Origin: a virus
Lineage: Duplodnaviria > Caudoviricetes
Virus record (IMG/VR): IMGVR_UViG_3300020120_000082
Location: 1 to 64,000 of that record
Strand: one strand, 5' to 3'
DNA length: 64,000 bases
This document shows, in pieces, positions 12,351 through 42,774 of this stretch; the stretch's first letter is position 1, and each line of letters opens with the position of its first letter. The notes beneath the pieces are model-generated. The model saw only the letters and a list, made by a program, of their open reading frames with translations. It did no database searches and was not told the DNA's origin. The position numbers and the translations under genes are program-made.

Positions 12351-12818
12351 ATGGCTACGCGAGTATTCAATCTGATGAACGGGGGTATCCGCTACGGCAA
12401 TACCCTCAAGACCAACGCCAGCGGCACTTTCTATCCCGGCGTTCTCGTCAAGCTGGACACCTCAGGCTCGACTGTGTCGACCTCGGGTTCCACCGGCGCA
12501 ACGAAGCCGTTTGGCTTCCTGTTCGGTGACCGGAATACCATCTACCGCCCGACGACCCGCAACTACAGCAACAACGAAATTGTGACTGTGGTGAACGGCG
12601 TCGGCTACGTGCAGATGTCTTCCGATCTGTTTGACGAAGCGGCTCTGCCGTCAACTATCGGCGCAACGATCTACGCAGCGGCTTCCGGCTTGTGGACGGC
12701 GAACGTGACCACCAACAAGGTCGGAACTTACGTGCAGACCGTGACCCGTGTTGAACCGGTGGGCGGTACGGGCTCTAGCCAGAACCTGGCTGTGGTTCAG
12801 TTCTCGTTCTTGCCGTAA
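12351..12818 (+). CDS. Capsid decoration/cement protein
   Basis: Small beta-rich protein directly before the major capsid gene; strongly biased codon use. Confidence 0.65.
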   Translation: MATRVFNLMNGGIRYGNTLKTNASGTFYPGVLVKLDTSGSTVSTSGSTGATKPFGFLFGDRNTIYRPTTRNYSNNEIVTVVNGVGYVQMSSDLFDEAALPSTIGATIYAAASGLWTANVTTNKVGTYVQTVTRVEPVGGTGSSQNLAVVQFSFLP

Positions 12819-12832
12819 CAGGAGACCCGAAC

Positions 12833-13801
12833 ATGCCCACGCAACTGAAAGAACTGATCAGCTTCGATTTTAGCAAGGGCGAGTGGGCCATTGGCCTGCG
12901 CGACCCCAAGACCAACAAGGTGACCGCCTCGACCACGAATCAGGCCGATGTGGACGCTTTCTTGGCCGACCTGGTGACCAACGGCTCTGTCGAAGATCAC
13001 CAGCTTCTGGCGGCTCAGTTGGTTGAGCCTATCGAGCAGGTTGTTCCTTACCAGGAGATCTACTCGATTTTCTATCAGGACTGGCAACTGGATGACCTGG
13101 AAGACAACTCGATCCCGGTCGAGGACACGGTGGCCGTGGCTTACCAGAGCCACCAGGACGGCGAGATCATGTACGCTCGCTCCGGGTTCAGCTTTACCCG
13201 GCCCGATTTCCAGACGTTCCAGACCGGCATCGAAGTGCAGTGGAAGTCGCTGAAGCGTGCCGGGTGGAACTACCTGGCTCGCCAGATGCGCCGCGCTTCG
13301 GAAGCCATGCAGCGCAAGCACGACGAACTGGCCCGCGGACCCCTGATCGCGGCTCTGCCAGCTTCGCACGAGTATAACGTGACCGGTGGCCACATGACCA
13401 AGGCCGCGGTGGATCAGATCCTGCGCGACCAGGCCAGCATCGGCTTCCCGGTCCAGCAAGTCATGATCAACCCGTCAACCCTGATGGACATGGGCAACTT
13501 CACCTGGGGCAACACCGGCTTCTTCATCGCGCCGGAAGATGCCCGCCAGTTGCTGCGCACGCTGCACATTATGGACTATGGCGGCGCTGCCTGGTATGCC
13601 AACCCGTTCTTCCCCACCACCGAAGTTCTCTTCGGCGGCGTGGCGTCCCAGATCGGCTGGCACCAGATCCGCGGCCAAGTCAACGTCACCAGTGATGTCA
13701 ACATCACCAAGGGCGTGGACCTGCATGCGATCCGCGATGCCGAGCATGCCTACTATGTGGGCAATGCTTACACCCTGGCTCGCCTGCGCATCGGCGCTTA
13801 G
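12833..13801 (+). CDS. Major capsid protein
   Basis: 322 aa, position, strong codon bias, AGGAG RBS, HK97-like pattern. Confidence 0.75.
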   Translation: MPTQLKELISFDFSKGEWAIGLRDPKTNKVTASTTNQADVDAFLADLVTNGSVEDHQLLAAQLVEPIEQVVPYQEIYSIFYQDWQLDDLEDNSIPVEDTVAVAYQSHQDGEIMYARSGFSFTRPDFQTFQTGIEVQWKSLKRAGWNYLARQMRRASEAMQRKHDELARGPLIAALPASHEYNVTGGHMTKAAVDQILRDQASIGFPVQQVMINPSTLMDMGNFTWGNTGFFIAPEDARQLLRTLHIMDYGGAAWYANPFFPTTEVLFGGVASQIGWHQIRGQVNVTSDVNITKGVDLHAIRDAEHAYYVGNAYTLARLRIGA

Positions 13802-13833
13802 TTGTAACCGGAAATAACCAAGGAGAATAGGCA

Positions 13834-14412
13834 ATGACAGTCGCTGAGAGAAAATCAAGAAGTCGGGTCGATCAGCCTTTGATCGAAGAGCAAGACGAGA
13901 TGCTGGAATTCGCACGCTTCCCTGGTCCGGGGACTCAGATTTATCCGAGTCCCCGGCCAGAAGTGCGCGATCTGGTGATGCCTCCGATGGTCTGGGTACA
14001 GGTTGATCCTGTTTTCAGAAACTCGGGGACATTCGTGCGCGATCGCAAGGCGCAAGTGTTTGAGCACATCAAGGCGGATGCCGCACCAGTCAACATCGAC
14101 TTGGTGATCAGTCCGGACCTGGATCAGGTCCTGGACCCGGCCCAGAAAGAACTGGCCAGGGTGATCGTGCTGGCTCCGGGCGAGACGCTCAAGCAGGAAT
14201 ACGTTGATGCGATCAGCATCGCCACCCACATCGACAATTCAACCGGCTTTCCCCGCAAGGACTCCCTGGTTACCCAGGCTTACCTGCGCGAGAATCATCG
14301 TCCGTTTCTGATGGCGATCCAACAGCTTGAGGGTCGGTATCGCAGGCGCAAGGCTGTCCTGGATCTGCTCCAGGAACAGCTTGGGCGGATCGCAGTGTTG
14401 CCAGGCAAGTGA
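13834..14412 (+). CDS. Hypothetical protein (post-capsid)
   Basis: AAGGAG RBS; C-terminal E..R.R..VL..L helix common in post-capsid genes. Confidence 0.7.
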   Translation: MTVAERKSRSRVDQPLIEEQDEMLEFARFPGPGTQIYPSPRPEVRDLVMPPMVWVQVDPVFRNSGTFVRDRKAQVFEHIKADAAPVNIDLVISPDLDQVLDPAQKELARVIVLAPGETLKQEYVDAISIATHIDNSTGFPRKDSLVTQAYLRENHRPFLMAIQQLEGRYRRRKAVLDLLQEQLGRIAVLPGK

Positions 14413-14413
14413 T

Positions 14414-15241
14414 GTGGCATACGATCTTCTCGTGCGTGGGTTTCAGGATTTTGTTCGCCTAGAGAGCGTCCTAGAGCAGCAGTCGATCTCACGCGATCCG
14501 CTTTCAGGCATCCTGGACGGCATCAACACCATCTTTCATACCACCTACTCCCCGATCCTGACATCGGGGAGTCTAGGTGTTTATCTGGGGAATACGCTAG
14601 TACCCGGCACGGCGGACTACAACACCGGAGAGATTACCCTATCTACTCCGCCCACCGTTCAGCCCCAGGCCAACTACATCTTCACGCCTTACACTTCCAC
14701 CCAGATCTCCAAGTTCACCATCCAGGGCTTTCTGGAAATGGAAAGCCAATGGACTCGTGGCTGGCAGTTGCTGGATGGCAGCGGTGCTTGGGCTGATGAG
14801 AACTCGACCAATGCGTATGTGGTCGACGGCAATGGCAATGATCCCACTTGCGGGAACACGTTCTTTTCCAACTCGCGCATTCAGATCGCTTTTTTCCTGA
14901 TGTGCTGCGAGTATCGATTCATGAAAACGCAGTTCCGGACGGCAGCGGGCACAGACTATATGTGGCGCGAGTCGGTCCGCGGTATGACGGTTGATAAGAG
15001 TAAGCGTCCATCCAATATAAAGCTGGTGGTTGATAGTTTGCGTGAAGAGATGATGGACGCGCTCAAGCAGGCTCAGATCCAGTTCTATCCAGGCGGCGAT
15101 CAGTTCGGCGGGGCCATTCTTAATCCGGTCACGCTGGACTATGCAGCCAACTATGAGTGGCAGACAGGCGCTAAACAGAACGACAACTGGTCCATTGAAG
15201 GTTTCAACTTTTCATATCGGCCACTAACTTACTTCCCGTAA
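14414..15241 (+). CDS. Head-tail connector-like virion protein
   Basis: Position; DG.N..F and DYNTGEITL..PP motifs; GTG just after the upstream stop. Confidence 0.55.
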   Translation: MAYDLLVRGFQDFVRLESVLEQQSISRDPLSGILDGINTIFHTTYSPILTSGSLGVYLGNTLVPGTADYNTGEITLSTPPTVQPQANYIFTPYTSTQISKFTIQGFLEMESQWTRGWQLLDGSGAWADENSTNAYVVDGNGNDPTCGNTFFSNSRIQIAFFLMCCEYRFMKTQFRTAAGTDYMWRESVRGMTVDKSKRPSNIKLVVDSLREEMMDALKQAQIQFYPGGDQFGGAILNPVTLDYAANYEWQTGAKQNDNWSIEGFNFSYRPLTYFP

Positions 15242-15272: not shown

Positions 15273-15827
15273 ATGCTTCCAAACAATCGTGGAGAAGAAA
15301 TGCGGGTTGGGTCCGGCCTGAACGCGGCGGGACAAGCTGCCATGGGTATGCACCGCAGCAGCCATTACGCCATGGAGTGTTACGGTCCGGATGGCTTGCT
15401 GCGCTGGCGGGACGAGTTCGACAACCTGGTGACGACAGCCGGGTTGAACGACTCGCTGCAACAGCACTTCAAGGGCGTGGCTTACACCGCTCTGTGGTAT
15501 GTCGGTCTGACGGCTGGTTCCACATTTGCCGCCGCCGACACCATGGCCTCGCATGGTGGCTGGTCGGAGAGCACCATCTACTCCAATAGCTCTCGCCCTG
15601 TTCTGACGCTGGGCACCGTTGCAGCCGGTTCGGTGGACAACTCTGCCTCAAAGGCCGTTTTCAATATCAACGGCTCTGGAAACGTCTTCGGCGCTTTCGT
15701 GACAACTGGTTCAGCTACGTCTGGTTCGGTTGGAACTCTGTACGGCGAAGGCTTGCTGGCGGCTGGTTATCGCGCTGTTCAGTCTGGCGACACCCTGTCG
15801 GTGACCATTACCCTGACCGCGTCCTAA
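15273..15827 (+). CDS. Virion structural protein (neck/collar fibre-type)
   Basis: NLVTTAGL, WYVGL, SGDTL.VT motifs typical of phage structural proteins. Confidence 0.6.
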   Translation: MLPNNRGEEMRVGSGLNAAGQAAMGMHRSSHYAMECYGPDGLLRWRDEFDNLVTTAGLNDSLQQHFKGVAYTALWYVGLTAGSTFAAADTMASHGGWSESTIYSNSSRPVLTLGTVAAGSVDNSASKAVFNINGSGNVFGAFVTTGSATSGSVGTLYGEGLLAAGYRAVQSGDTLSVTITLTAS

Positions 15828-17374: not shown

Positions 17375-18082
17375 ATGGCCATCGCGTTTGTTCAGGGTAT
17401 CGGAAGCGATTTTCAGTTTGGTAGTACGACTCAACAGATTGTATTTAACTCTATCCCGACCGATAACGACATCATCGTCTTGTGCTACGAGAACACTGTT
17501 GTACCGGGGGCGAGCATAACGTGGCCGACCGGATTCACACAACTGTTCAATGGCTCTGGTGGGTCATCAGCCGTAGATGTAAAGGTAGCCTGGAAGCGGG
17601 CCAACGGCGAGTCCAGCGCCACCTATACGGTAACACTGGGTGCAAGTACTGATAACAACCAACTGATGATTGGAATGACGTTCTCTGGAGTAAACACATC
17701 TAGCGCAATCGATGTGTCGTCTTCCACAATCACAGATGGTGCCTTTAGCAGTCCTATTGCCATTCCAGGTATCACGACCGTCACTGCTAATGCGATGCAC
17801 ATTATTGTCCCTGCTAACAGCGACACGGTCAACTATACGACGCCCAGTAATTACTCACGCGGACCGACAGCACAGGCAGGCGGAAGTACACGTTTGACGG
17901 CGTTCTACAGGCTAATCGCATCGCCGGGCAGTACCGGCACCGTAAACATTGTCTACGATGCCAATACGACAGTAGCTGGAGAGTTTGCCCTAACTCCAGC
18001 GCCATTAGGGACGCCCATTGCGGCGCAGGATTTTCTGGTTTTTCCCAAGACGAGAATGCGTGCTGGAGCGCGTGGCATATGA
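17375..18082 (+). CDS. Virion-associated beta-rich protein
   Basis: MAIAFVQ start, PTGFT, WKRA, FSGV motifs. Confidence 0.55.
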   Translation: MAIAFVQGIGSDFQFGSTTQQIVFNSIPTDNDIIVLCYENTVVPGASITWPTGFTQLFNGSGGSSAVDVKVAWKRANGESSATYTVTLGASTDNNQLMIGMTFSGVNTSSAIDVSSSTITDGAFSSPIAIPGITTVTANAMHIIVPANSDTVNYTTPSNYSRGPTAQAGGSTRLTAFYRLIASPGSTGTVNIVYDANTTVAGEFALTPAPLGTPIAAQDFLVFPKTRMRAGARGI

Positions 18083-19401
18083 TTCTTCTTACAACTATCA
18101 ATGACACCATGGAGATGGTGACGTCTGGATCGGCGTCGGCTGACGTTCACGTTTCCTATATGGACCTGTTTGGAACGACGGTTACGCCTGGAAAGCTAAA
18201 CACCAATATAACCATTCCCGTCACGACTACTATTTGTCCGGCTCCAGCGTCAGGGCATCAGGTTAACGTCAAGACAGTCAACGTTCGTAATAAACACGCG
18301 ACGGTTGCTACAGACGTTACGATCCAGCTTAACACCAGCGGCAGCACCTTCGAGTTGCACAAGGTCACGCTGTTGTCTGGCCAGGCGCTTGAATATATCG
18401 AAGGCATTGGGTTTTTCCAGCTTGCCGCTTCAGTTTCTCAGGTTGATGTTCAAACGTTTGCGGTTAACGGAACCTGGACTAAGCCGACGACATTCACACC
18501 TAAGATCGTTACGGTCAAGATGTGGGGAGCCGGTGGTGGTGGCGGCGCTGGAGCAAGCCTGGCAACAGCCGTTGCTGCGCCAGGCGGGGCGGGTGGTGGT
18601 GGTGGTGCTTGTGCCATTACTCAATATCTCGCATCGGATCTGCCAGCGACCGTTACCGTAACTGTCGGAGTGGGCGGAACGGCAGGTGTGCCGGGTGCCG
18701 CAGGGGCTCTGGGCGGTGACGGTGGTGCGGGTGGAGACTCGTACTTCAACGGAACTTCAAACGTCCACGCCTCTGGTGGTGGCGGCGGTCGTGGTGGGGC
18801 TATTTCGGGTGTGGCTGGCGGTGGCGGTGGCGGTGGCGGAACCGGAAGCTCAGGTGGAACTGGAACTACGGCTGTTGGAACTGGCGGCAATCCGCTTGGG
18901 CAGGTTAACACTACCGTTACTGGAGTTAACGGTGGACAGGGATCGGCTGGGACTGTTACGGTCATCACCACACACTCTGCTGAATGGGGTGGTGGTGGAG
19001 GCGGTGGCCATACCAGCACACCTGCTAACTCGGTTGGCGGATCCTCGATTTGGGGTGGCGGTGGTGGTGGATGCGGCGCTGGACACAACGCTACGCCAGC
19101 AGTAGTGGCCGGTGCTGCCGGGGGCCTGAGTGGAACATATGTCGGAGGTGGTGGTGCCGCGGCTGGTGGTAACTCGCCAGCGACGAACGGAATAAACGGA
19201 GCCGATGGCGATTCAACCAAGGGCGGCGGTGGTGGTGGCGGTGGCGGCTCGACTGTCACGGCTTCTGCCAATGGTGCTGCTGGCGGCAACGGTGGTAAGG
19301 CGGGTGGTGGTGGTGGTGGTGGTGGGACTGGCATGAACCCCGGCTTAGGTGGCGCAGGCGGATCTGGCGGTTCTGGATATGTAGTGGTTATTTCAATGTA
19401 A
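18079..19401 (+). CDS. Glycine-rich fibre protein
   Basis: GTWTKP..V..WGAGGGGG; poly-Gly runs; GGSGYVVVI terminus. Confidence 0.8.
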   Translation: MILLTTINDTMEMVTSGSASADVHVSYMDLFGTTVTPGKLNTNITIPVTTTICPAPASGHQVNVKTVNVRNKHATVATDVTIQLNTSGSTFELHKVTLLSGQALEYIEGIGFFQLAASVSQVDVQTFAVNGTWTKPTTFTPKIVTVKMWGAGGGGGAGASLATAVAAPGGAGGGGGACAITQYLASDLPATVTVTVGVGGTAGVPGAAGALGGDGGAGGDSYFNGTSNVHASGGGGGRGGAISGVAGGGGGGGGTGSSGGTGTTAVGTGGNPLGQVNTTVTGVNGGQGSAGTVTVITTHSAEWGGGGGGGHTSTPANSVGGSSIWGGGGGGCGAGHNATPAVVAGAAGGLSGTYVGGGGAAAGGNSPATNGINGADGDSTKGGGGGGGGGSTVTASANGAAGGNGGKAGGGGGGGGTGMNPGLGGAGGSGGSGYVVVISM

Positions 19402-31400: not shown

Positions 31401-32905
31401 TCGGAATTGGGCTATCTGGTGTTCAGAGCGGGTTTGGTATGCGTATTCCGCAATCCATTCTGAATCCATATCCCAATCCAATCGAGAACTTTGGTGGATT
31501 GCAAAATCTACCCCAGGGCGTTGGCATAGAGCAGTATCGTTCGATGGTTCAGGCTACTGAGTCGCAATTAAAGATTGCTGGTGTTCCGACCGACGACAAG
31601 AACTACGAAGTTTTGAGTCGGTCCGGAACGTTGCTGGGGCAAATCCTGGCCGACAGCAATGCCATTCGGATTACCAACGACAAGATCGCCCAGAACACGG
31701 CTACGTTTGGCGGAACTCCGCCATCGGGTGTGAATGCGTCTAATGCTACCGAGTTCCAGGCAAAAGTTGCTGCCGAAGATGCTAAGTTGAAAGCGGCGGG
31801 TATCTCTGTATCCGATCCAAAGACAATCGTGTTCCAGGACAAGGCAACCGATGCTCTGTTCAAGATTGTTGGAAGCAATGAAGCGATTCAGTTTGCCACT
31901 CAAACGATGGCGGCAAATGCGCCAACGTTCTCAGGCATGCTGCCCAAGGGCGAAGATCTGAATAAGATCCAGGCCAGAGTCAGTGCGATCGATCAGTCTG
32001 GCATGGTAGGTGCGGCTGGCCTAGATACCACCCAGGTTCAGAAAGTCTTCTGGGATCCGGTTACCAATACCCTGCGTGCTATTCATGGCACCGAGACAGC
32101 CATCCAAATTGCTACAGAAGAAGCTGCCAAGCTGTTGCAGCAGCAAATCACCGGGACATTTAATGTTCCCGCTGGTGGCGAAGCAGTGGTGGCATTCTTC
32201 GCGCTACAGCAGGGATTCGTTCCGGGTGGAGCAGGTGGTCCAGGCGCGGGTGCGGGTGGTGGTGCCGTTGCCCTGAATGGTTCAGCCACTGCTTTGAACA
32301 CGTCGGCCAATTACTTGAGCGCTTCAGCCCAGGCGCTGTTGCTGGCTGCTCAAAGACTGGGTGGTCCAAACGGCGACATTCTGCGTGAGATTGCCGCGCA
32401 TGAATATGCCAATACGTCTTTCCGGACTCCTGGAACTTCCCCTTATTATCACAGTCCAAATGCGGGTTCGGCAACAGGTTATCTTGGAGAATTTCACACA
32501 CCACAGACTTCTAACTACAGTGCGACTACTTCTCATCCAACATTGCCGCCGCCGAATACCAATCAGCATTTCGAAAGCCCTGGACATAGAACTGGGCCAG
32601 GCATCAGCCAGGACGACCAGTTGTACCAGGTCTTTCACCAGCGCTTTAAAGAGATGATCGACAAGCTGATTGGAATTTACCCAACCAATGGAGAACTTGC
32701 TTCCAAGACGGCTTCTATTGGTCCGACCGGCATGGGCGGCAGAACTACTGGCGCAACGAATACTAACCTGTCTGTTAACAACGCAATCCGAATCAACATC
32801 GATGGTCGGCAGATTGCATACTACATGAACCGCAAAACCTATCGGCAATTCGAGTCAACTCGAAATGCTGTAAGCGGCGTTCCTAACTCAGTGGTGACTC
32901 TATGA
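28499..32905 (+). CDS. Tape measure protein
   Basis: 1468 aa after the G/GT pair; Ala/Gly/Gln-rich helical core; TM-like segment; C-terminal INIDGRQIA. Confidence 0.85.
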   Translation: MAEETSFHEIVQFEWRTGGDTGPDAASKSMIDALSEIDAKIRAIDANAQSVFGTSFATSIAPATASVGALNVSLAKTLELLRSIKEQGPIDPLGGGTTPPPPPNNPPPIIIPPGAVSGTSGAYSYNISRDLAPALPPPPPAQQIPRDYVPPVLPPPPSSNSGDIVYYGPGRLGLNSPSFLGGGISYAPPSEVSGFASITSLPEGVTGSSGWEERLRKWQDEQRQIGQRQYNKPELAQLPTPPALTPIGFKETAFEQNIGRGPLSEEEFQRQQDETARILMAGSTPPGWLELGGPSSYQKPSLTNFGTGGIQTNARLSDQWQTAPQDFLNSYSDLTAQAKDLSNITDLLKQFSQLRYGGPASTGQEVGFPVETGWTSTIYGGGTTLGGLLNGPQPQYIPGQGSTFGIPNWQTPPQQTINNQGSNYTYATGTGTRFDFPPGGYSSSGYYGEDWGPTGRSYQYTPPPPPGSTGTYGPGGYGTPGSPFQFGSGTVFPGAGNPNGFGMSGGLWGPGGNGIGGPPGPPWVAGGWQQGQNIPNFNPNLVNQVDQAGVSFENATNKAGNFERALGRIVTYSVIFAGFAAVGAVVRGVADEMVRLSDVQSRIGFVNGQSNQATLAQFTQAANYGISPAQAGQGILTAGQLGASPQQNQQAQQLALIFGADQYSNALVQLTRTQEQASATGLKHVNTLDFIAQSYKTLPGSLNDYFGALQRGIQLNAQFGVSAENMGLAIEKGMLTTGQSADQVAVAYQSILSKVATPATQKALEPLGIQRGDATTMVREITEEYQRLAQVGDRAGIEKLGEALQGGGIGGYSRIETLPDIFSALNTALNNTNPNLAKFSALLNDVSNSDVTKINQLTASWNNFLLALGSGIPGNAAGQFLDGITRQLKNVTDIIENGGKAIQSVGADPAGALGRVAKYSQDNPFTLTNLIQAPFNPARTLEQLAGLIDAATNGRIGGPSEGGRPGPIGIGLSGVQSGFGMRIPQSILNPYPNPIENFGGLQNLPQGVGIEQYRSMVQATESQLKIAGVPTDDKNYEVLSRSGTLLGQILADSNAIRITNDKIAQNTATFGGTPPSGVNASNATEFQAKVAAEDAKLKAAGISVSDPKTIVFQDKATDALFKIVGSNEAIQFATQTMAANAPTFSGMLPKGEDLNKIQARVSAIDQSGMVGAAGLDTTQVQKVFWDPVTNTLRAIHGTETAIQIATEEAAKLLQQQITGTFNVPAGGEAVVAFFALQQGFVPGGAGGPGAGAGGGAVALNGSATALNTSANYLSASAQALLLAAQRLGGPNGDILREIAAHEYANTSFRTPGTSPYYHSPNAGSATGYLGEFHTPQTSNYSATTSHPTLPPPNTNQHFESPGHRTGPGISQDDQLYQVFHQRFKEMIDKLIGIYPTNGELASKTASIGPTGMGGRTTGATNTNLSVNNAIRINIDGRQIAYYMNRKTYRQFESTRNAVSGVPNSVVTL

Positions 32906-33258: not shown

Positions 33259-34244
33259 CTGATCATTTGCGCATGGCTTGCACCGGAACCTCGGGCATCA
33301 AAAGCATTGAAGTTACGGAAAGCTATACCCAGGCAGTGGTGAATGCCGAAGTGACATGCACCACGCATAGCCTGGCGATTGGCGATTTGGTGACCGTTTC
33401 GATGGGAACAGATGTCGTTTACACAACCATGATCACCAATGGGATTGTCAAGAAGATTGTCACTCGCGCACCCGAGTTTGACTATGTTATTACAATCCAG
33501 GATCAGCTAAGTCTGGCGGTTGACTTTTTTATTGCGTCGGATGATCCCAACAATCCGTATAAGGCGCACAACATTGAAGCGTCGGCCCTGGCTGTTTACC
33601 TGCTGGGTTTGGCTGGGATAACTAGCGTAGTTTCGGAAACAACCATCTTTACCTATGGAACAGTTGGGGATGGGGTGCCAGTCAACCTGGTTTCTGTCTG
33701 GAGCATGGTTGATACGATTTCCAGGGTGTGCGGTTTTACAACTTACTGTGACGCTTCGGGGGTAATTCATTTTAGGGAACGCAAACCCTATGTCACAACG
33801 TCGGATACCGTCTCGACACATTCGTACACAACCGGAAATGGCGGGGACATTCTGACCATTGAGTACGATCGCAATACCGAAGGCCTGATCAACAGGGTGG
33901 TGGTTTATGGTGGGGTGGGGAACACAGTCCATTCGACCGCGGAAGCGGCATCGCCCTATCTCCCGGCTGGCTTTTTCAAGGCAACGGTGGTAGCACATCC
34001 GCTGATTGACAATCAGGCCGCAGCCGATGCAACTGCCAACTTGAACCTGGAAATGTTCAACCGCTTAACTGAAACTGTATCAATTCAGGTCAAGGGAAAT
34101 CCAACGGTCAGAGTCAGGGATATTGTGGACGTGACCGAGTCGTTCACTGGCTTGACATCATCGACGCTCTGGTTGGTGTTTGGAATAACGCATACCATTT
34201 CCCAGACCGAAGGGTTTTCGCAGAAGATTACGCTGATCAAATGA
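33255..34244 (+). CDS. Tail tip/hub protein
   Basis: D.SGVIHF, NRVVVYG, GNP.VRVRD.V motifs. Confidence 0.7.
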   Translation: MTDHLRMACTGTSGIKSIEVTESYTQAVVNAEVTCTTHSLAIGDLVTVSMGTDVVYTTMITNGIVKKIVTRAPEFDYVITIQDQLSLAVDFFIASDDPNNPYKAHNIEASALAVYLLGLAGITSVVSETTIFTYGTVGDGVPVNLVSVWSMVDTISRVCGFTTYCDASGVIHFRERKPYVTTSDTVSTHSYTTGNGGDILTIEYDRNTEGLINRVVVYGGVGNTVHSTAEAASPYLPAGFFKATVVAHPLIDNQAAADATANLNLEMFNRLTETVSIQVKGNPTVRVRDIVDVTESFTGLTSSTLWLVFGITHTISQTEGFSQKITLIK

Positions 34245-36505
34245 CCACGCCGCTTTCAGCCCAGATCACCATTGCGTCGACCGATTACTCGGCGCACTTG
34301 ACGTCCCTGGTGCGTGAAGCCAGCCTGGAGAAAGCGGGCGCTACGGTCACCATGACGATGAAGTCATCATTTCCGTTTGCATCCATCAACCCCTGGGACA
34401 ACCTGGTTGTTTACGAGAACGGGGTAAAGACGCTTACTGGATATGTGACGCATATCATTCCCAGACGGGCTCCGGCTGAAGTCGAAGTTCAGGGAATGGA
34501 CACGTTCAAGCGTTGTCAGGATTGGTTTATCAGCGACAACTTGTACACAGGCGGGCCTGATGCTCAGCTAACGACCGACAAAACAACTCACAATGTTGGG
34601 TATTACGTCGGCTATCTGTGCAATCTGTGCGGCATATCCTACTCGATTAGCGATACCAGCGGCTCACTGATAAAACTGGCGGCTGATATTCCACTGGGTT
34701 TGCGCTCCGTGTCAGACGCGCTGGTTACGCTGTCGGCTGTCGGACAGTGGAATATTAGAGTGGATCCGAACGGCGTCTTGCGATTCGATCATATCAATGG
34801 GCCGACCGTGGCCGATTACACCCTTTCCTCGGTGACGCATTTTGAAGAAGAGTATAACGATACCGACACCCGCAATCAGGTGAAGATCTGGGGGCTTCAG
34901 GACTTCAGCCCATTGACCAGCGGCTCTGCTTTCTCGGGCGGCGGTCAAATTCTATGGTCTGAAAGCCGAGCCGTTACTGGGGTATCACACACCCGAACTA
35001 TGGTGGTGGCCGAACCGCATATCGATACGCTTCTAAAAGCGCAGCAATTGGCCAAAGCGGTATTGGATCAATGGGCGAGACTTGAGCATCTATTGTCCAC
35101 CGAGTCGGTTGGAAACCCCAACATTCGGGTTGGCCAGTCTGCCCAGCTTTTTCATAGAAGTCTGACTTCAGGGAGCTACTTTGATGTTGTGACGGATCTG
35201 CGCACAACCATCAATGCAGGTGGATATAAGCAGGACATCACTGAAGGGCGTAGGGCTTACCGATATCCGTACTGGCCAATGCCGACCACTCCGCCAGAAG
35301 AGTGGGGCAATGGAACGCTGCTGGGTGCTGCTTACGATTGCGCGGTTTATGGAGATTCGATCTATTCGGCTGGACTTGTGTTTCTGAACAATGACATCTA
35401 CCGGCGTCAATGCTGGCACATCGAAAGAAGACTGCTGACAGATGGAACTCTGGTATGGCAGAAGACGATCGACCATGTGACGCTGAATCCGCTTGTCAAT
35501 GGTGGCAACGTTTTCGCGCATATCAACGGCATTGAGATAGCCAACGGAATTATCTTCGCCACCGGAGTCATTTACTTCGACGAGCTAAACGCCAGGGCCA
35601 AATGGCAAGTTGAAGCATACGACACGGCTTCCGGGAACACGCTCTGGACGGACACAATTCTGTATGGCCCCAGTAATGGCTCTATGGAGACAACCGGATA
35701 CGATGTCGTGGCAACGGCAACCCAGGTCTTCGTTTTGGGAACCTATCCATACGAAATACCCAACCCAACCATGGGCGGAACGCTGATCATCGACATTGCC
35801 GCGCCAACGTTCAGGGTTTACGCGGCGGCTACAACAAAGACCGTATTGATAAGCCAAAATCAGCCGGTTAGAACTGCCGCGGCATTTGATGGAACAATAT
35901 TCACCACGCCTTATAGCAACTTCAGGCAGATTTGCCTGGATGCAGATGGCGGTCTCGTAACCAGCGGGGCATATAAATACTATTACCAGAAAACCATTGT
36001 CCCGGTTTACTGGCCACCAATCATTGCATATTACAACTACACCATCCGGCCATGGTTCGGACATTTTTCGAGTTCATTGGCCATCACCTGGGAAACGCTC
36101 TGGCCATACTCTTTGTCTGATCTGAATTTTGGTATCGACTACGCGGTTGGTGTAGACCAAAACGAAGTCAGGCAATACCGGCTTGGATCTGACAGTGCAA
36201 ATGGCACTGATCCTGGCGGACTTGGAAAATACAACCAGGTCAGCAATCTATGGCAGACAAACATTGGGTTCGGGGACCAGCACGGACACGTTGAGATTGG
36301 CAATTACGTCTATATCGCTCAAAACAGACTTGGTGCCAACAATCTCCGGTGGCATAACACCAGCGACGGATCGCTTATTGGAACTAGAGACGAGTCTGGA
36401 TTAACCACGCATGGGATCAAGCTGATTCAGGCCACCTCCCAGGTGGGATTGTGCGGTCAGAAGAACTGGATATTCTGGACTGTAATCTGGAACCAGCCAT
36501 CATAG
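34241..36505 (+). CDS. Second tail hub-like protein with C-terminal beta-propeller-like region
   Basis: VDPNGVLRF, NQVKIWG, GNPNIRVGQ (paralogous to the upstream gene); DGTLVWQ/GNTLWT repeats. Confidence 0.65.
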   Translation: MTTPLSAQITIASTDYSAHLTSLVREASLEKAGATVTMTMKSSFPFASINPWDNLVVYENGVKTLTGYVTHIIPRRAPAEVEVQGMDTFKRCQDWFISDNLYTGGPDAQLTTDKTTHNVGYYVGYLCNLCGISYSISDTSGSLIKLAADIPLGLRSVSDALVTLSAVGQWNIRVDPNGVLRFDHINGPTVADYTLSSVTHFEEEYNDTDTRNQVKIWGLQDFSPLTSGSAFSGGGQILWSESRAVTGVSHTRTMVVAEPHIDTLLKAQQLAKAVLDQWARLEHLLSTESVGNPNIRVGQSAQLFHRSLTSGSYFDVVTDLRTTINAGGYKQDITEGRRAYRYPYWPMPTTPPEEWGNGTLLGAAYDCAVYGDSIYSAGLVFLNNDIYRRQCWHIERRLLTDGTLVWQKTIDHVTLNPLVNGGNVFAHINGIEIANGIIFATGVIYFDELNARAKWQVEAYDTASGNTLWTDTILYGPSNGSMETTGYDVVATATQVFVLGTYPYEIPNPTMGGTLIIDIAAPTFRVYAAATTKTVLISQNQPVRTAAAFDGTIFTTPYSNFRQICLDADGGLVTSGAYKYYYQKTIVPVYWPPIIAYYNYTIRPWFGHFSSSLAITWETLWPYSLSDLNFGIDYAVGVDQNEVRQYRLGSDSANGTDPGGLGKYNQVSNLWQTNIGFGDQHGHVEIGNYVYIAQNRLGANNLRWHNTSDGSLIGTRDESGLTTHGIKLIQATSQVGLCGQKNWIFWTVIWNQPS

Positions 36506-36519: not shown

Positions 36520-39500
36520 GTGAATAGAGTCCCAGAATTTCCACCGATGATGATTGAATATCTCAAGCTCGCCAAGCAGTCTGGCAGCTTGTCACCATTC
36601 TGGCTGGGTGGGACAGGCGGTGCTGGAGGCGGTGGCGGTGCGCCGCCTGGTGGTTTCATTGGCCAGTTGCCGCAAAGCCTGGTTACTTACGATACCACTG
36701 AAGCAGCCACCACGTCTGGCTCAAGCTCGCTAGTCGACAACCTGAATCATATACGCTACCAGCTTGCCAATGCTCAATACAACGCTGGCGTGATTGGCGT
36801 TGAATTTGCTCAGTCGGAGTATACAGCCGGGAATATCAGCCTGGGAACAACCGTTGATGGCGGCTGGGTAGATGTTGATAGCACCAATGCTGCCATCTCG
36901 ATCACCCCAAATAGCGGCGGAACGTTCCAAGCTACGTTTGGCTTCGTCTGGCTCAAGGGTTTTACTGTAGATGGCAACAGCATGACCATGTCCTTCCGCT
37001 TGACGGATGGGACTACCAATCTTGATCCGCAGACATTCATCAGCGGTGCGCAAGTCATTTCGCATCCAATTAACCTGAGTGGTTTGTTTTCCTGGACTAA
37101 CACCACAACCAGGACAATCAAATTACAGAAGTACTTAAGCGCAACCAGTACCGCGCCAACGTATAACCAGGTTACTGCTTCCAGTGGCGCATCTCTGCAC
37201 ATGGATATTTTCCGCCTGGGCTCTATTGCCACAGGCTTTGTATCCGGATCCGGCGCAGCGGGGCGGGTAGCTTACTGGACCAGTGGATCGGTTTTGGGGA
37301 ATGATAGCAATTTCACCTGGGATACAACCAACAGCCGACTGAGCATTGGCAAGCTGGCTCTGACAGCCGGATCGATGTCTATGGCTGGCAGCGTCTTTGC
37401 TTTAGATGCCAGCATGAAGATCGATCCAACCGGAGCGATTAACGGACAGGTTCTGGGTTACAACGGATCCAAGTGGGTGCCGGTTGTTTCGTCTGGATCT
37501 CAGGCCGGAACGACGGGATCTGGTTCGACTGGTCAGCTTGCGCTTTGGTCATCTACCAGTGCGCTGTTTGGTCTTTCAAGCCTGGATTACGTAACTGGAA
37601 CAACCACTAAAGTCAGGGTAGGGCATTCGGGAGACTCGTTCGCCCTGGGAATCAACGCCACCCCAGACGATTACGTCACGCTCCAGGTCACTCAGCCTAA
37701 TTGGGCGGGTGGATCGAGTCCAGCCGCCCTGGTCGTTTCTCCTGGAAGCCTGACTGCTCAGACAGGCTCTCCGGCTACATTCTTGTCTCAGTCCAGCATC
37801 ATTATCTGGAACAACGCCAACCTGCCGTCATCCTGGGCGGCGAACATCTTTAGCCCACCAGATGTCAGAGCGGTGTCATCCGGTGGTGTTATTCCGCTGG
37901 CTTCAACCCTGCGTATATCTGGAGCCCCAACATCCGGGTCAAATGTAACCATTACGTCGGCCTATGCCCTGGAAGTGACGTCTGGATCTGTCTTCTTTGG
38001 TGGCCCACTGTCTCTGGCGGGCAAGTTCTTCACGCTCGATGCCAACATGCGCATCGATCCATCTGGTGCTACCAACGGGCAAGTTCTGACGTACAGCGCT
38101 GGAACGGGCAAGTGGATTGCGGCAGCTTCGTCAGCTTCTGGCGGTGGTGGTGCATCCAGCATTTCTGGCGCTGGTGCTTCCAGTCGCATTGCTTACTTCA
38201 CTTCCGGATCGGTCATTGCCGGAGATACTAACTTCTCCTGGGACACCACTAATCAGAAGATGATCATTGGCGGAACTCCGGCGAGTGTTCCTACTGGATC
38301 AACTTCATCTCTGGTTCTGATCAAAGAGTCTGCTGCGGTCAGCCTATCTCTATTTGAATATGGATCATTTCAGGCCAGTGTTCTGACATCCAGAGCTAAT
38401 GGAACAGCCGCTTTGCCGTCCAATCTTTTGTCTGGAGATACAGTTGGCGGTCTATTTGTATCGGGATATGGATCAACAGGATTCGCGTCGTCACCGCGGG
38501 TAAGGATCCAGGGCATAGCTGCGGAGAACTGGTCAGACACCGCCCAGGGCATGTATCTGGGGGTTACTGTCACGCAGCCCGGAACCACGACGGCAGTTGA
38601 CGCGTTCGATGTCAAATACGATCGCGTCTCCATTGTTGGCAAAGACCTGATCCTGGATGCCAGTATCGAACTGGATCCAACGGCGGCTGTCTCCAATCAA
38701 GTTTTGACTTACAACGGATCGAAGTGGATCCCGCAGACATTCTCCGGGATTTCTGGCATATCCGGATCCGGTGCAACAGGTGACATCGCTTTCTGGACTT
38801 CTGGATCGGTTATCTCTGGAAACAGCACGCTGTTTTGGGACACCGCCACCACACCCAACAGGATGATTATCGGATCTAACTCTGGCGTAGTGACAGGACC
38901 GCAGCTAATCCTGGTCAGCGATTCGGTAAGTGCTGGGCTTAGTATTGAAGGGTATTCAATATCGCCAACCATCGCCAGCTTCCGGGCCAATGGGAACAAG
39001 ACGTCTCCAACCAGCGTAACCAACGGCCAGACGATGCTAAGCATCAGCGCCAGGGGTTATCGATCCGGAGCATTCAACGGCGTTTCAACGGGTCGTATAA
39101 ACTTCGTAGCTGGCGAAGATTGGACATCCGGGAGCCTGGCAACCTATCTGTCATTCCTGACAACCGGCTCCGGGACCGCCACAACTTCCGAGTCTCTGCG
39201 CCTGACTTCGCAGCGGGCATTTTTCGGCAACCCGCTGAATGTTCCATCAGTCCTGAATACTGCCAACAGCCAGGGCCTGGTGGTGCATTCGAACACGGAT
39301 GGAATTAATTCCGAAATTGATATTGTTGCCCACGGAACGTCTGTTGCCCCAATTATTTCTGGGGCCAGAAGCCGTGGCACAACGACTGTGCCGACAGCCC
39401 TTCAATATCGCGATACGCTGTTGCAATTAGACAGCTATGGATATGACGGGTCCGCTTGGTCAAATGCACAATCATCATTACGTGTAACAGCCGAATCTGG

Positions 39501-42500
39501 TTGGAATTCCGGTGCGCACGGCACGGCTTTCGAATTCTGGTCGACGCCATTCAACTCAACAACCATGGTGTACATCGCCGGAATCGATGACACCGGAGCC
39601 TCGTTCTCATCGACTCGCGCTGGTCTGGGCGTTGACATGACGGTTGGCAATGACTCGAATGCCAGCGGCTCTGATGGTCTGGTTCAGATTTACACCACCG
39701 GCTCTGGTAATAGCAGCCCCTATCTTCAGTGGGAAACTACTGATCCCGCTCGACAAGCTACCTACACATTTGGCATTGATCACGGCGACGGCGATAAGCT
39801 CAAGCTGACTAATGCATTCTCTGTTTACAGTGGCGTTATCCTGTCCATCACTACTGGCAGCGCCGTGTCCTGGGCTCAAAATCAGCAGACCTGGGGCAAT
39901 AACCTGATCAGGTTTGACGCTGCCATGGAGCTTGATCCATCCGGCGCTACCAATAATCAGGTTCTTTCGTACAACGGCTCCAAATGGGTTCCCACAACCG
40001 TCTCTGGGGTGGGCGGATCGCTATCTGGATCCGGCACAGCCAACCAAATCGCTTACTTTTCTTCTGGCAGCGTCCTGTCCAGCAGTTCAGCTTTGGTGTT
40101 TGACGCGAACAAGCATGTAACCGTCAATCCGCCCGGAGTCTCGGGTGGCACCCCCACGCTGTTTACGGTCAGCCAATCATTTGGCGACTCTGGTCTGACT
40201 GGCGAGACCATCAATATCAATTTCAACCTGGCCCATAACTATCCATTCACATCGGGCTCAGCGCCAGTGACGCAGCGTGCATTCCTGATTCAAGGGCCGA
40301 CGTACTCTATGACGTCCGGCTCTGGAACAATCACCACTGCCGCCACAGTAGCGATCAATGGCGCTCCAATCGCAGGCACTTCACCCAATGCGATAACCAT
40401 TACCAACAGCTACGCGTTATGGGTTCAGTCCGGAAATGTGCTGCTGGCGGATGGGCTAGGACTGGGCTCGACCACATCCGGCTCAACCGGCCAGTTGCGC
40501 CAGAGCGCTGACAACCAGATCTGGAATGGTAAAGTTATCCGGTTCGACGCTGCTATGGAGATCGACGCCACCGGAGCGACGAATGGATTGTTCCTGGGGT
40601 ACAACGGAACAAAGTGGGTGCCTACATCTGGCTCCAGCAACGCCGTGACTAACTCGGGTGGCGGTGCGCAGTACCGGGTCATGATCTGGAACAGTGCTGG
40701 GACCGCTACTGGTGATCCTGGCTTTACCATGGACTCGATCACCACCACCATTAACCCGAACGCAGTGGTGCTCAATAACCCGCTCAAGACGTTGCTGGTC
40801 AAACCGCCACAGCACACGCTCTCGCACAACGAGAACGAGAACATCGGCATCCACTTTGACTTCAGCCAGAACCAGAGTGGCCCTGCGCCGACGTCCGGCA
40901 GCATTGCCTCTGAACGCGCCTTCCTGGTAACAGCATCCAATATTGGTTTCAATACTTCTGGATCCATTCTGGATGCTGCAACCATGGCCATTACCGGAGC
41001 GCCGATAACCTCCGGCTCGCTGACAACTGTCTCGCGCAGCCATGCCTTGTGGGTGCAGAGCGGCGAAGTTCTGTTTGCAGATGGCCTGGATCTGGGAACA
41101 GCCTCTGGGGCTACAACTGGACAGCTACGACAATCAGCGGCCAGTCAAATCTGGAATGGCAAGACCATCCAGTTTGATGCAGCTATGGAGCTTGATCCAT
41201 CCGGGGCGACAACCAACCAGGTGCTTGGGTATAACGGATCCAAGTGGATAGCTCAGACTGTTACGTCTGGTTCGTCTTCTGCTCCATTAGGCTGGTACAA
41301 CGTCAAGGACTACGGCGCAACCGGCAATGGATCGACTGATGACACAGCCGCGGTCAGTTCAGCTATTACTGCGCTAACTTCTGGCAGCGGCGGTGTGCTG
41401 TATTTCCCGCGTGGCAGCTACAAGACATCGGGCGGGTTTTCCATAACCGTGCCTACCATGGTAATGGGGGATGGAAACGCCGACTCGCATAGCGACGTTC
41501 TCTTGCCTAATGCGACAACGCGTCTGCTATGCACTTCAGCTTCAGCTAATCTTCTAACCCTGAATTCGGCTGGTTGCTCAATTCGTGATATCGCGCTGAT
41601 CAATACCACCAGTGGTAGCACTACAGCCGGGGCTGGCCTGGTCGTCGCCAATCGTGACGACAATATGCACATTAGCAGAGTCTCGGTCAGCCGGTTCTAC
41701 AACTGTATAGATGTTCAGACGGCTTTTATGTGGCGTATGGATGGGTGTCTGATCATCAACCCGTTCCATTACGGCCTTAAGATCGCGGACAGCTACAACC
41801 CCGACTGGGGCGACTTCTCGATCTCCAATACAGAGTTTACCAGCGGTTCGTTTGACGGTGCTACCGCTATCCGGCACGAGTCGGGTGGTGGCATGTACAT
41901 GGCCAACTGCAAGATCGACGGTTGGAAAGCCACAACTTCCGGTTCAGTACACCGCTTTGCGCATGCTTACGATCTTTCGCCTGCCGGGACAACCAGTTCT
42001 AGCATCATCGAGATGGCGAATTGCAGCCTGGAGAATGTTTCCGGTGATGTGATCTCGGTCAATACCAGCGGCAGCACGAACTGGAAGTTCCTGATCTTCA
42101 ACGGCTTGCAATTTGGTCTGTATGCGATCACCGGTCACGCCATAAAGCTTTCGTCGGATACGCTGGGCAATCTCTCTAACGTCCTGATCTCGAACAACAT
42201 CTTCTACACCGACTATGGATCAGCGGCCAGCGCCGTCGACCTGACCAATGTCCAGACAGTGCAATTGCTGAACAATCTCAGCACCGGGTTTACGCCTTTC
42301 ATGATGCAGAGCGGCTGTTCAGGCGTCGTGGACGTGGATACCCTGTTCCACGCTGACTATCAGCAAACAACTTACAGCACCGGTAATATTTTGCTGGGCA
42401 CAAGCACTGACGGCTCTTTTGTTGACGCTGACTCGACGAATGCCAAGCTGTCATTCACACCATCCAACGCCGGTAGATATAAAGTCACATTCACGTTTAC

Positions 42501-42774
42501 TCACTACCGCAAAGCTGCGGCTCTGTCGACTTTGTTCGAGCTAGATGATGGAACCACGCAGTCCACCGTACAGCAAAGCTATACCGCTTTGGCTACGGCA
42601 GACAACACCGTCATTATCACGCTCAGCTATATCTTCAACTGGACAGCTACTGCCCAGACGGTCAAGCTCAAGAAGAAAGTCACTACAGCTACCACGGTTA
42701 CTGCCAACGAGATTGAAACGTTCTCCGGCACCAGCCAGGGTTTGCAGATGGAAGTATTCCGGATCGGTATATAG
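36520..42774 (+). CDS. Long tail fibre/receptor-binding protein with pectate-lyase-like beta-helix
   Basis: Six GQVL.YNGSKW.P-type repeats; NVKDYGATGNGSTDDTAA..GGVLYFPRGSY. Confidence 0.85.
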   Translation: MNRVPEFPPMMIEYLKLAKQSGSLSPFWLGGTGGAGGGGGAPPGGFIGQLPQSLVTYDTTEAATTSGSSSLVDNLNHIRYQLANAQYNAGVIGVEFAQSEYTAGNISLGTTVDGGWVDVDSTNAAISITPNSGGTFQATFGFVWLKGFTVDGNSMTMSFRLTDGTTNLDPQTFISGAQVISHPINLSGLFSWTNTTTRTIKLQKYLSATSTAPTYNQVTASSGASLHMDIFRLGSIATGFVSGSGAAGRVAYWTSGSVLGNDSNFTWDTTNSRLSIGKLALTAGSMSMAGSVFALDASMKIDPTGAINGQVLGYNGSKWVPVVSSGSQAGTTGSGSTGQLALWSSTSALFGLSSLDYVTGTTTKVRVGHSGDSFALGINATPDDYVTLQVTQPNWAGGSSPAALVVSPGSLTAQTGSPATFLSQSSIIIWNNANLPSSWAANIFSPPDVRAVSSGGVIPLASTLRISGAPTSGSNVTITSAYALEVTSGSVFFGGPLSLAGKFFTLDANMRIDPSGATNGQVLTYSAGTGKWIAAASSASGGGGASSISGAGASSRIAYFTSGSVIAGDTNFSWDTTNQKMIIGGTPASVPTGSTSSLVLIKESAAVSLSLFEYGSFQASVLTSRANGTAALPSNLLSGDTVGGLFVSGYGSTGFASSPRVRIQGIAAENWSDTAQGMYLGVTVTQPGTTTAVDAFDVKYDRVSIVGKDLILDASIELDPTAAVSNQVLTYNGSKWIPQTFSGISGISGSGATGDIAFWTSGSVISGNSTLFWDTATTPNRMIIGSNSGVVTGPQLILVSDSVSAGLSIEGYSISPTIASFRANGNKTSPTSVTNGQTMLSISARGYRSGAFNGVSTGRINFVAGEDWTSGSLATYLSFLTTGSGTATTSESLRLTSQRAFFGNPLNVPSVLNTANSQGLVVHSNTDGINSEIDIVAHGTSVAPIISGARSRGTTTVPTALQYRDTLLQLDSYGYDGSAWSNAQSSLRVTAESGWNSGAHGTAFEFWSTPFNSTTMVYIAGIDDTGASFSSTRAGLGVDMTVGNDSNASGSDGLVQIYTTGSGNSSPYLQWETTDPARQATYTFGIDHGDGDKLKLTNAFSVYSGVILSITTGSAVSWAQNQQTWGNNLIRFDAAMELDPSGATNNQVLSYNGSKWVPTTVSGVGGSLSGSGTANQIAYFSSGSVLSSSSALVFDANKHVTVNPPGVSGGTPTLFTVSQSFGDSGLTGETININFNLAHNYPFTSGSAPVTQRAFLIQGPTYSMTSGSGTITTAATVAINGAPIAGTSPNAITITNSYALWVQSGNVLLADGLGLGSTTSGSTGQLRQSADNQIWNGKVIRFDAAMEIDATGATNGLFLGYNGTKWVPTSGSSNAVTNSGGGAQYRVMIWNSAGTATGDPGFTMDSITTTINPNAVVLNNPLKTLLVKPPQHTLSHNENENIGIHFDFSQNQSGPAPTSGSIASERAFLVTASNIGFNTSGSILDAATMAITGAPITSGSLTTVSRSHALWVQSGEVLFADGLDLGTASGATTGQLRQSAASQIWNGKTIQFDAAMELDPSGATTNQVLGYNGSKWIAQTVTSGSSSAPLGWYNVKDYGATGNGSTDDTAAVSSAITALTSGSGGVLYFPRGSYKTSGGFSITVPTMVMGDGNADSHSDVLLPNATTRLLCTSASANLLTLNSAGCSIRDIALINTTSGSTTAGAGLVVANRDDNMHISRVSVSRFYNCIDVQTAFMWRMDGCLIINPFHYGLKIADSYNPDWGDFSISNTEFTSGSFDGATAIRHESGGGMYMANCKIDGWKATTSGSVHRFAHAYDLSPAGTTSSSIIEMANCSLENVSGDVISVNTSGSTNWKFLIFNGLQFGLYAITGHAIKLSSDTLGNLSNVLISNNIFYTDYGSAASAVDLTNVQTVQLLNNLSTGFTPFMMQSGCSGVVDVDTLFHADYQQTTYSTGNILLGTSTDGSFVDADSTNAKLSFTPSNAGRYKVTFTFTHYRKAAALSTLFELDDGTTQSTVQQSYTALATADNTVIITLSYIFNWTATAQTVKLKKKVTTATTVTANEIETFSGTSQGLQMEVFRIGI

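Follow-up and report, generated by a model that had tools for sequence, protein, structure and literature searches.

An x-S-G-S motif recurs across virion proteins of an environmental tailed phage and is a candidate O-glycosylation sequon

Introduction

Why should one tetrapeptide, Thr-Ser-Gly-Ser (TSGS), recur in unrelated structural proteins of a single phage? The question is raised by a 64,000-nucleotide stretch, here called the window, of the virus record IMGVR_UViG_3300020120_000082 (Duplodnaviria; Caudoviricetes). It spans the first 64 kb of a 138,808-bp phage genome (G000; completeness 88% by CheckV) that is known solely as a metagenomic contig. On the plus strand, its late region runs from a glycan cluster (105-9717) through scaffold-like genes, the decoration protein, the major capsid protein, neck and fibre genes, the tail tube, the tape measure and Dit-like and hub-like proteins to a 2084-aa fibre. 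An earlier note, made from the sequence alone, proposed that TSGS is a convergently acquired acceptor site for the glycosyltransferases (GTs) and methyltransferases of this cluster. We assessed the statistics of the motif, its distribution among relatives, its placement in protein folds and its association with GT genes. The data suggest that the motif, in the wider form x-S-G-S, is probably an O-glycosylation sequon on virion proteins, read in the cytoplasm by the phage's own GT module.

Results

TSGS is enriched at the amino-acid level

Counting TSGS in the window reproduced the per-protein numbers of the earlier note (20, 3, 2, 2, 2, 1, 1 and 1), a total of 32 copies in eight proteins. Per-protein composition predicts 1.37 (Poisson P 2e-32), and in 2000 shuffles within proteins the mean count was 1.3 and the highest 7. 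For the large fibre, the note had roughly estimated about one expected copy; composition gives 0.50. GGGG runs aside, TSGS is the most over-represented tetrapeptide of the window, and the other enriched ones (PTET/TETP, NRGE and GFTP) reflect PT-rich linkers or chance. No copy occurs in the tape measure, the major capsid protein, the enzymes or the minus-arm genes of the window, as had been claimed. The called genes of the whole genome hold 36 copies, with 31 of them in the virion block at 12.3-42.8 kb (expected 1.13, P 1.6e-33).

A DNA-level origin of the motif is ruled out. Codons vary freely, as first described: the 36 sites use 33 distinct 12-mers, all four Thr and all four Gly codons, and all six Ser codons (both the TCN and the AGY family) at both Ser positions, and the four codon strings quoted in the earlier note are all present. 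The five non-coding frames contain 15 TSGS in total and show no enrichment. Internal repeats of the 2084-aa fibre are ruled out as a source as well, since a BLASTP comparison of the fibre with itself returned the self-match only. An artefact of composition is ruled out by the shuffles together with a permutation control, in which each of the other eleven permutations of T, S, G and S occurred 0-3 times, except SGST, which overlaps TSGST. When sites were pooled across the clade described below, position 1 was T in 85 cases and S in 14, and at positions 2-4 the residues S, G and S (85 each) compared with at most 9 for any alternative. These statistics show selection on the peptide and are silent on its reader.

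The motif is a property of the lineage

Relatives were compared as whole genomes (G000-G006) or as 21-kb loci (L031, L032 and L035). TSGS is the top enriched tetrapeptide in G000, G002, G003 and G004. In G001, a distant relative obtained from a capsid-based scan (39% identity), the top tetrapeptide is SSGS, and all 11 [TS]SGS lie in late genes. Genome-wide observed-to-expected ratios of [TSA]SGS for G000-G005 are 8.3, 9.2, 13.5, 9.6, 5.4 and 3.7, respectively. The three loci are likewise stamped, the term we use for such enrichment, and GC content across the stamped relatives ranges from 0.45 to 0.65.

Within these relatives the motif is a lineage property confined to certain virion protein families. 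It occurs in the decoration protein (10 motifs in 1394 residues; sites in 7 of 9 genomes), a 304-aa head-proximal protein (13 in 2469; [TS]SGS in 9 of 9), a 181-aa protein encoded before the tube (5 in 1530; 5 of 9), the tail tube (12 in 2960; 5 of 9), a hub-like protein (6 in 2593; 3 of 4) and the fibre (23 in 2255; 2 of 2); the fibre of G002, 600 aa long, has 8 TSGS. The major capsid protein (2883 residues in 9 genomes), the Dit-like protein (2251 residues in 7) and the tail chaperone-like protein (1874 residues in 8) have none, and the scaffold/protease has a single copy in 3341 residues (1 of 9 genomes). The tape measures of L031, L032 and L035 also have zero motifs, as in the window. In all, this short motif is common to eight window proteins and to more than 10 protein families across the clade.

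Outside the clade, the next-nearest tail-tube family (~400 aa; 120 proteins, 47,696 residues) was unenriched, with 4 TSGS compared to 2.5 expected and no SSGS, in line with the proposal of the earlier note. An outgroup structural locus (L036) had no [TSA]SGS in 5.9k residues and no glycosyltransferase in the 21 kb covered, and in four other phage genomes (G011-G014; GC 0.37-0.63) [TSA]SGS stood at 0.9-1.0 times expectation. Positions 664-3693 of L036 are rich in repeats of the SVSPS type (26 SVSP), which form a Ser/Pro-rich tract of low complexity unrelated to the motif.

Sites turn over and lie in turns and loops

A search with the 335-aa tail tube protein, which has a duplicated tube domain (24926..25933, plus strand; TSGS at residues 22 and 188, nt 24989-25000 and 25487-25498), returned 73 homologues at 35-100% identity. 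In this family 66 of 73 members carry one to three [T/S/A]SGS, and the alignment shows 8 alternative motif positions with at least 36 gains or losses by parsimony on a FastTree tree. Sites also shift in the 155-aa capsid decoration/cement protein (12351..12818, plus strand; TSGS at residues 37 and 44, nt 12459-12470 and 12480-12491). One loop is shared by G000, G002, G003, G004 and L031, another is used in G001 and L035, and L035 has an additional third site, so that three loops are used across orthologues. This turnover supports the wording 'convergently acquired'. Position-conserved sites exist too, namely tube residue 188 and a 'PIL-[TS]SGS' site in the 304-aa protein. Turnover is the pattern expected if selection favours the presence of sites rather than a structural element.

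We then placed the sites on AlphaFold2 (AF2) models. The tail tube model (predicted local distance difference test, pLDDT, 89.4) matched the duplicated-domain SH-Ab15497, P74-26 and T5 pb6 tubes in Foldseek (E 1e-12 to 1e-14). In this model TSGS 22-25 is predicted to form the turn joining strands 14-20 and 26-29, and 188-191 to fall within the loop 187-197. The decoration protein model (pLDDT 83) matched decoration or stabilising proteins of the T1, FCWL1, Pam3 and TW1 capsids; its site 37-40 is modelled as the turn joining strands 32-35 and 41-44, and site 44-47 as running from the last residue of strand 41-44 into the loop 45-54. The earlier note had expected surface loops. In the two models, the sites do fall in beta-hairpin turns or loops, outside strand or helix interiors; exposure at the surface is a separate matter that we take up in the Discussion.

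This placement invites the explanation that TSGS is an unmodified, favoured beta-turn that is reused in beta-rich virion proteins and was spread by ancestry and domain shuffling. Turns are often rich in Gly and small polar residues. The present sites are found in hairpin turns and loops, their flanks are enriched in hydrophobic, strand-type residues (0.54 and 0.52 vs a background of 0.42), and the tube 188 and 'PIL-TSGS' sites have kept their positions. However, all four positions of the motif are near-exact and its other permutations are absent, at an enrichment of 20-30-fold over composition. Outside the clade, homologous beta-rich tubes are without the motif, residue 1 switches by lineage (T, S or A) around a fixed S-G-S, and new positions have been gained repeatedly. 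A turn preference also leaves unexplained that the fibre is without internal repeats and that an unrelated AT-rich phage, G007 (described below), combines like stamping with the same enzyme module. We consider a purely structural preference improbable.

Placement also bears on processing, that is, cleavage of the motif by a phage maturation protease. Prohead-protease sites in large phages are typically short motifs that recur in many virion proteins, and a second motif of G007, LSWDI, found in other large proteins, could be such a site. Cleavage at x-S-G-S is implausible, however, because a cut would destroy the protein at sites such as these, which lie within the folded core of the tail tube (residues 22 and 188 of 335) and all along the fibres and the beta-helix. 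The usual protease substrates (scaffold/protease and capsid proteins) are without the motif, and we give this explanation hardly any credence.

A glycosyltransferase module accompanies the motif

Every stamped relative has GT genes beside its head genes. In the window, the module at 105-9717 encodes GT4, GT2, GT-A and GT4 enzymes, all co-oriented with and directly upstream of the head genes, and the same arrangement is seen in L031, L032 and L035. The third of these enzymes is a divergent GT-A (GT2-like) glycosyltransferase of 288 aa (6429..7295, plus strand) that has no Pfam match and was recognised through the ESM Atlas, where it falls among phage GT2 clusters at 0.97 (features) with a template-modelling (TM) score of 0.72 to GT2 models. 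Its family is present in every stamped relative whose region was covered, and in the genomes G007 and G008. Eight diverse members share the invariant residues D54, D111-E112 (in a DXD-like DADE), H143, D178 and H196. When the alignment profile was compared to the PDB, the sole significant match was the glycosyltransferase domain of GmaR (E 2.6e-5, profile positions 3-196; next match 0.74). The match is modest and hence supports a relationship, not orthology. This GT-A is our candidate for the sequon-reading, initiating protein O-glycosyltransferase. A predicted complex between it and the decoration protein scored 0.00, which counts neither way.

The remaining module genes, all on the plus strand, mostly encode further predicted glycan enzymes. 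The first is a 310-aa GT4-type glycosyltransferase (105..1037; Glyco_trans_1_4 7e-14, Glycos_transf_1 2e-8) whose orthologues in G002 and G003 are 47-48% identical. It is overlapped by an open reading frame (ORF) at 962..1621, a possible methyltransferase with a weak match (Methyltransf_23, E 0.0097, below the Pfam cut-off) and orthologues in G002 and G003; its true start probably lies downstream of 1037. Next come a 219-aa S-adenosylmethionine (SAM)-dependent methyltransferase (1893..2552; Methyltransf_12/23/25/11, E 1e-10 to 1e-13) and a 497-aa cobalamin-binding radical-SAM enzyme (rSAM; 2625..4118; Radical_SAM 2e-16, B12-binding 8e-11). A 238-aa GT2 glycosyltransferase (4955..5671; Glycos_transf_2 4e-9) has orthologues in G002, G003, G007 and G008. 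The GT-A gene is followed by that of a 471-aa protein without a Pfam match (7292..8707), whose neighbours in the Atlas are bacterial proteins without annotation; among named clusters, the nearest (BNR/sialidase-like, 0.90; GH32N, 12% share) are weak leads. The last enzyme is a 333-aa GT4 (8716..9717; Glycos_transf_1 3e-20) with orthologues in G002, G003, G007 and G008 and, by Pfam, in L031, L032 and L035.

Two small ORFs lie between the GT2 and GT-A genes. The first of them encodes a 112-aa protein (5683..6021, plus strand) that itself bears TSGS at residue 54. Its homologue in L032 (118 aa, 1807-2163) has SSGS at the aligned place and is likewise located between GT2 and GT-A. This small protein may serve the system as substrate, primer or regulator.

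The tailoring part of the module varies. Homologues of the rSAM were found in G002 (76% identity), in G007 (BLASTP) and in L035 (Pfam), and none was detected by similarity in G001, G004, G005 or G008. In G003 (14705-15085; locus L016) the rSAM has decayed to a 126-aa remnant while strong stamping is kept, so the rSAM is dispensable for the motif. The rSAM or the methyltransferases are unlikely to read the motif, as the stamped G001, G004 and G005 are without homologues by BLASTP; since these enzymes are not clade-wide, we take them to be accessory. The module of G004 instead includes a DegT-type aminotransferase, a short-chain dehydrogenase, a hexapeptide acyltransferase, a sulfotransferase and a GT4-GT2 fusion, and that of G001 has a GT2 and a GT4-GT2 fusion. 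Tailoring genes thus differ among relatives, so that the motif is conserved while the predicted glycan varies.

An unrelated phage combines the module with xSGS stamping

A scan of viral contigs with the GT-A alignment yielded G007 (IMGVR_UViG_3300029288_000079; 181,733 bp, GC 0.335). G007 has no tail-tube homologue, and apart from the terminase and a few replication genes BLASTP found nearly nothing that it shares with the clade. It does carry the same syntenic block, rSAM-GT2-(two small ORFs)-GT-A-(small ORF)-GT4, after which comes a GT4-GT2 fusion. Its top tetrapeptides include ASGS (25 vs 1.6 expected) and SSGS (21 vs 2.9), and TSGS is absent. The block at 67.5-99.6 kb that adjoins the module contains 43 of the 46 [AS]SGS (expected 2.9, P 6e-35), in 38 unique contexts once repeats are removed, and encodes a Baseplate_J protein, a fibre with a ConA-like lectin domain and an amidase. 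The motif and the module thus co-occur in two unrelated phage lineages. Some lineages have Ala at position 1, which cannot accept a glycan, and this leaves only the two invariant serines as possible acceptors.

Other regions of G007 carry a different signal. At 106.9-163.4 kb (L048-L051), the motif (L)SWDI, with P, S or K as the next residue, is found 29 times vs 0.3 expected, in at least 12 large proteins that have no xSGS. A maturation protease could cut at this motif, or the motif could be a recognition tag of another kind.

The association of the earlier note's acceptor motif with the GTs is supported by the presence of the cluster in all stamped relatives, by the G007 module and by the likeness to GmaR. 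The proposal also withstood every computational check that the note had set as a possible refutation. Two parts were refined: the motif is x-S-G-S, where x is T, S or A by lineage, rather than TSGS alone, and the methyltransferases, which had been included among the enzymes acting on it, are accessory.

Two further sets of GT-A-bearing sequences were examined. G008 has the module without the rSAM. The tetrapeptide GHTG was ruled out as a stamped motif of this genome, as it belongs to a tandem fibre repeat of 44 residues; ~24 copies of this repeat, centred on S-G-H-T-G-F-E-S, build up two giant fibres (1366 and 2030 aa) at 72,995-103,063 (L056-L058). The contigs L086-L088 have mostly non-structural genes in the 10-kb flanks of their GT-A. 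In L088 (10865-12703), thymidylate kinase and thymidylate-synthase-family genes come after the GT-A homologue, and GT2, radical-SAM and sugar-nucleotide enzymes come next.

These genomes are the place to weigh a different reader of x-S-G-S. The motif could receive another covalent modification (phosphorylation, acylation, ADP-ribosylation or cross-linking) from a host enzyme or an unrecognised phage enzyme, or serve as a docking site for a chaperone, a cement protein or the host surface, with the GT module directed at another target such as phage DNA or the host envelope. The enrichment itself does not identify the reader, and several module genes have no assigned function (4143-4709, 6022-6426, 7292-8707 and 9883-10641). 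The L088 neighbourhood, with its thymidylate synthase and kinase genes, and G008, with a module and little stamping, also fit this explanation. However, stamping goes together with the same syntenic GT module in two lineages that share little else by BLASTP, and the nearest solved relative of the conserved GT-A is a protein O-glycosyltransferase. In G000, G002, G003, G004 and G007 (two of them 100% complete), we found no Hanks-type kinase and no thymidylate-synthase-type hydroxymethylase (PF00303), other modified-base routes not having been searched; these absences make kinase and T4-like DNA-glycosylation readings less likely. For a docking motif one would expect fixed structural positions, whereas 8 shifting positions are seen in the tail-tube family. 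On balance we judge a different reader unlikely, and the least unlikely of the alternatives to an O-glycosylation sequon.

Further marked and unmarked proteins of the window

Searches of a phage genome collection with nucleotide and protein queries gave no match to the structural region or the capsid protein, and the module enzymes had zero sequence matches in the same collection. Judged by sequence, G000 is distant from everything in it. PHROGs and Pfam were uninformative for the majority of the virion proteins. All genes in this section are on the plus strand of the window unless stated otherwise.

The 322-aa major capsid protein (12833..13801; phrog_2522, major head protein, 5e-14) is without the motif and lies next to the decoration protein gene. 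The head-proximal structural protein (14414..15241) has its TSGS at nt 14561-14572 and zero Pfam, PHROG or PDB sequence matches. It measures 275 aa from ATG 14414 or 304 aa from TTG 14327. The longer ORF overlaps the preceding gene (13834-14412) by 86 nt, and ATG 14414, directly past the upstream stop, is the more likely start. A late protein of 184 aa (15273..15827; phrog_8123, unknown function) has one TSGS, at residue 149. The Gly-rich fibre-like protein (18079..19401; 440 aa) has two, at residues 15 and 86, and matches phrog_863 (annotated as tail fiber assembly, 2e-15) and, weakly, Gly_rich_2.

In the tail, the 1468-aa tape measure protein (28499..32905) has 0 TSGS. Directly after the Dit-like gene, a baseplate/hub-like tail protein of 754 aa (34241..36505; phrog_1887, tail protein) bears TSGS at residues 139, 226 and 309. 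The giant tail fibre/tailspike (36520..42774; 2084 aa) carries the 20 copies counted above. It matches Pect-lyase_RHGA_epim at residues 1592-1656 (1e-13), and 6 of its 20 TSGS are in or near this pectate-lyase-like beta-helix.

Some observations concern other parts of these genomes. Outside the window, a 215-aa ORF of G000 (133356-134003) has two TSGS; its start and its reality are uncertain. Just upstream of the glycan module of L032, positions 528-1085 contain an Acb2/Tad1-hairpin-type gene and a weak BubE-like gene, candidate anti-defence genes in a late operon by sequence. In L031, a minus-strand gene at 16104-17129, between the tape measure and the distal tail genes, has faint LAGLIDADG_3 and HTH_58 matches and is possibly a homing endonuclease.

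Discussion

Our results are best accounted for by O-glycosylation of x-S-G-S, which would proceed as follows. Late in infection, the module at 105-9717 would be expressed together with the adjoining head and tail genes. The GmaR-like GT-A would recognise the motif, displayed as a tight turn at a beta-hairpin tip or in a loop, on folded or folding protein, and would attach the initial sugar to one of the two invariant serines. The glycan would then be lengthened by the GT2 and both GT4 enzymes, and tailored by the two methyltransferases and the cobalamin radical-SAM enzyme; relatives would swap these tailoring enzymes for an aminotransferase, a dehydrogenase, an acetyltransferase or a sulfotransferase. 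The assembled particle would display glycans on the decoration protein, the tail tube, the baseplate and, above all, the fibres. Buried or left-behind proteins (tape measure, scaffold and chaperone) and the major capsid protein would be glycan-free. Selection would act on having sites and not on their place, giving rise to turnover, and the benefit might be shielding, stability or adsorption. A broader idea is that this is a portable, self-contained system, in which a GmaR-like GT-A reads a strict x-S-G-S beta-turn code, extending and tailoring enzymes are swappable and make glycans specific to each lineage, the module moved between unrelated phages, and the recipients wrote the code into their exposed virion proteins by point mutation. 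For this broader idea we find the considerations for and against evenly balanced.

Several points weigh against the sequon. The case is built from sequence statistics and co-occurrence, from which we infer covalent modification. Five TSGS of G000 lie outside the virion block (expected 0.48), some of them in ORFs of doubtful reality, and G005 is weakly stamped (3.7x). Placement in the two models was read from DSSP strings, without coordinates, and says turn or loop, not solvent exposure. The GmaR match is modest and spans the generic GT-A core alone, and the phage enzyme is without the tetratricopeptide repeat (TPR) domain of GmaR. The context in L088 suggests that GT-A family members may serve DNA modification in some genomes. 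Within the clade, we found no relative that is stamped without the module, or the reverse, and with no discordant relative the association is confounded by shared ancestry; independent support is essentially one further lineage, G007. The main inconsistency is G008, where the module is accompanied by weak enrichment (12 vs 5.8, P 0.016).

Freeman et al. (2023, Cell Host Microbe 31:1216), as summarised in PMC12619734, report that in the mycobacteriophages Che8, Corndog and Myrna, phage-encoded glycosyltransferases modify the phages' own capsid-associated and tail-tube subunits ahead of assembly in the cytoplasm or in its course, with glycans at the C-termini of capsid and tail-tube subunits. 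The present phage resembles these in having GTs placed with structural genes, its own virion subunits as putative targets, and cytoplasmic assembly. It differs in that the putative acceptor is a tetrapeptide inside the chain, on turns and loops, the fibres are the main carriers and the major capsid protein is unmarked in 9 genomes; the tube sites, at residues 22 and 188 of 335, are not C-terminal.

The glycosyltransferase domain of GmaR transfers N-acetylglucosamine (GlcNAc) to Listeria monocytogenes flagellin in the cytoplasm (PMC9638930). The sugar is O-linked to Ser/Thr of a structural protein that ends up in an extracellular filament. GmaR (PDB 22ao/22ap) and the phage GT-A are alike in their GT-A fold, and the nucleotide-sugar and DXD motifs align. 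GmaR is, however, a 637-aa protein with TPR and anti-repressor domains, whereas the phage enzyme has 288 aa, low identity and its own C-terminal part of ~90 aa, and no TPR was found in it (no Pfam domain at E <= 0.01). We know of no short sequon for GmaR.

More distant systems offer partial parallels. The Chlorovirus PBCV-1, a eukaryotic algal virus, encodes soluble cytoplasmic GTs and sugar methyltransferases that produce methylated capsid glycans, N-linked to Asn at atypical sites, with the canonical host sequon unused. Here, too, the virus would bring its own cytoplasmic GTs and methyltransferases to an outer protein, but the PBCV-1 linkage is to nitrogen and the enzymes are unrelated. The general O-glycosylation sequon of Bacteroidota, D-(S/T)-(A/I/L/V/M/T), similarly marks many unrelated proteins with one short motif; that system is periplasmic and relies on a lipid-linked glycan and an oligosaccharyltransferase, whereas virion assembly is cytoplasmic. 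Pfam scans, confined to the module genes of G000, G001 and G004, detected no flippase, oligosaccharyltransferase or lipid-linked-glycan family. Proteoglycan xylosyltransferases, which act in the eukaryotic Golgi, prefer acidic flanks and follow no strict tetrapeptide, recognise a Ser-Gly core; x-S-G-S shares this core by analogy only.

Virion glycosylation by phage enzymes is already known from a few mycobacteriophages, and in the literature searched no recognition code for it has been described. Under the broader idea of a portable system, x-S-G-S would be the first O-glycosylation sequon defined for any phage, and perhaps no shorter strict O-sequon is known from the cytoplasm. If x-S-G-S is a recognition code, glycosylated phage proteins would become predictable from sequence alone, and the clade would clearly exemplify the co-evolution of many proteins with a single acquired enzyme module. 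Such a code would also account for the glycan clusters found among structural genes in many environmental phages, and would offer a compact, genetically encodable tag-plus-enzyme pair for cytoplasmic glyco-engineering. As glycan coats alter immune recognition, stability and adsorption, such a code would be relevant to phage ecology and to the design of phage therapy.

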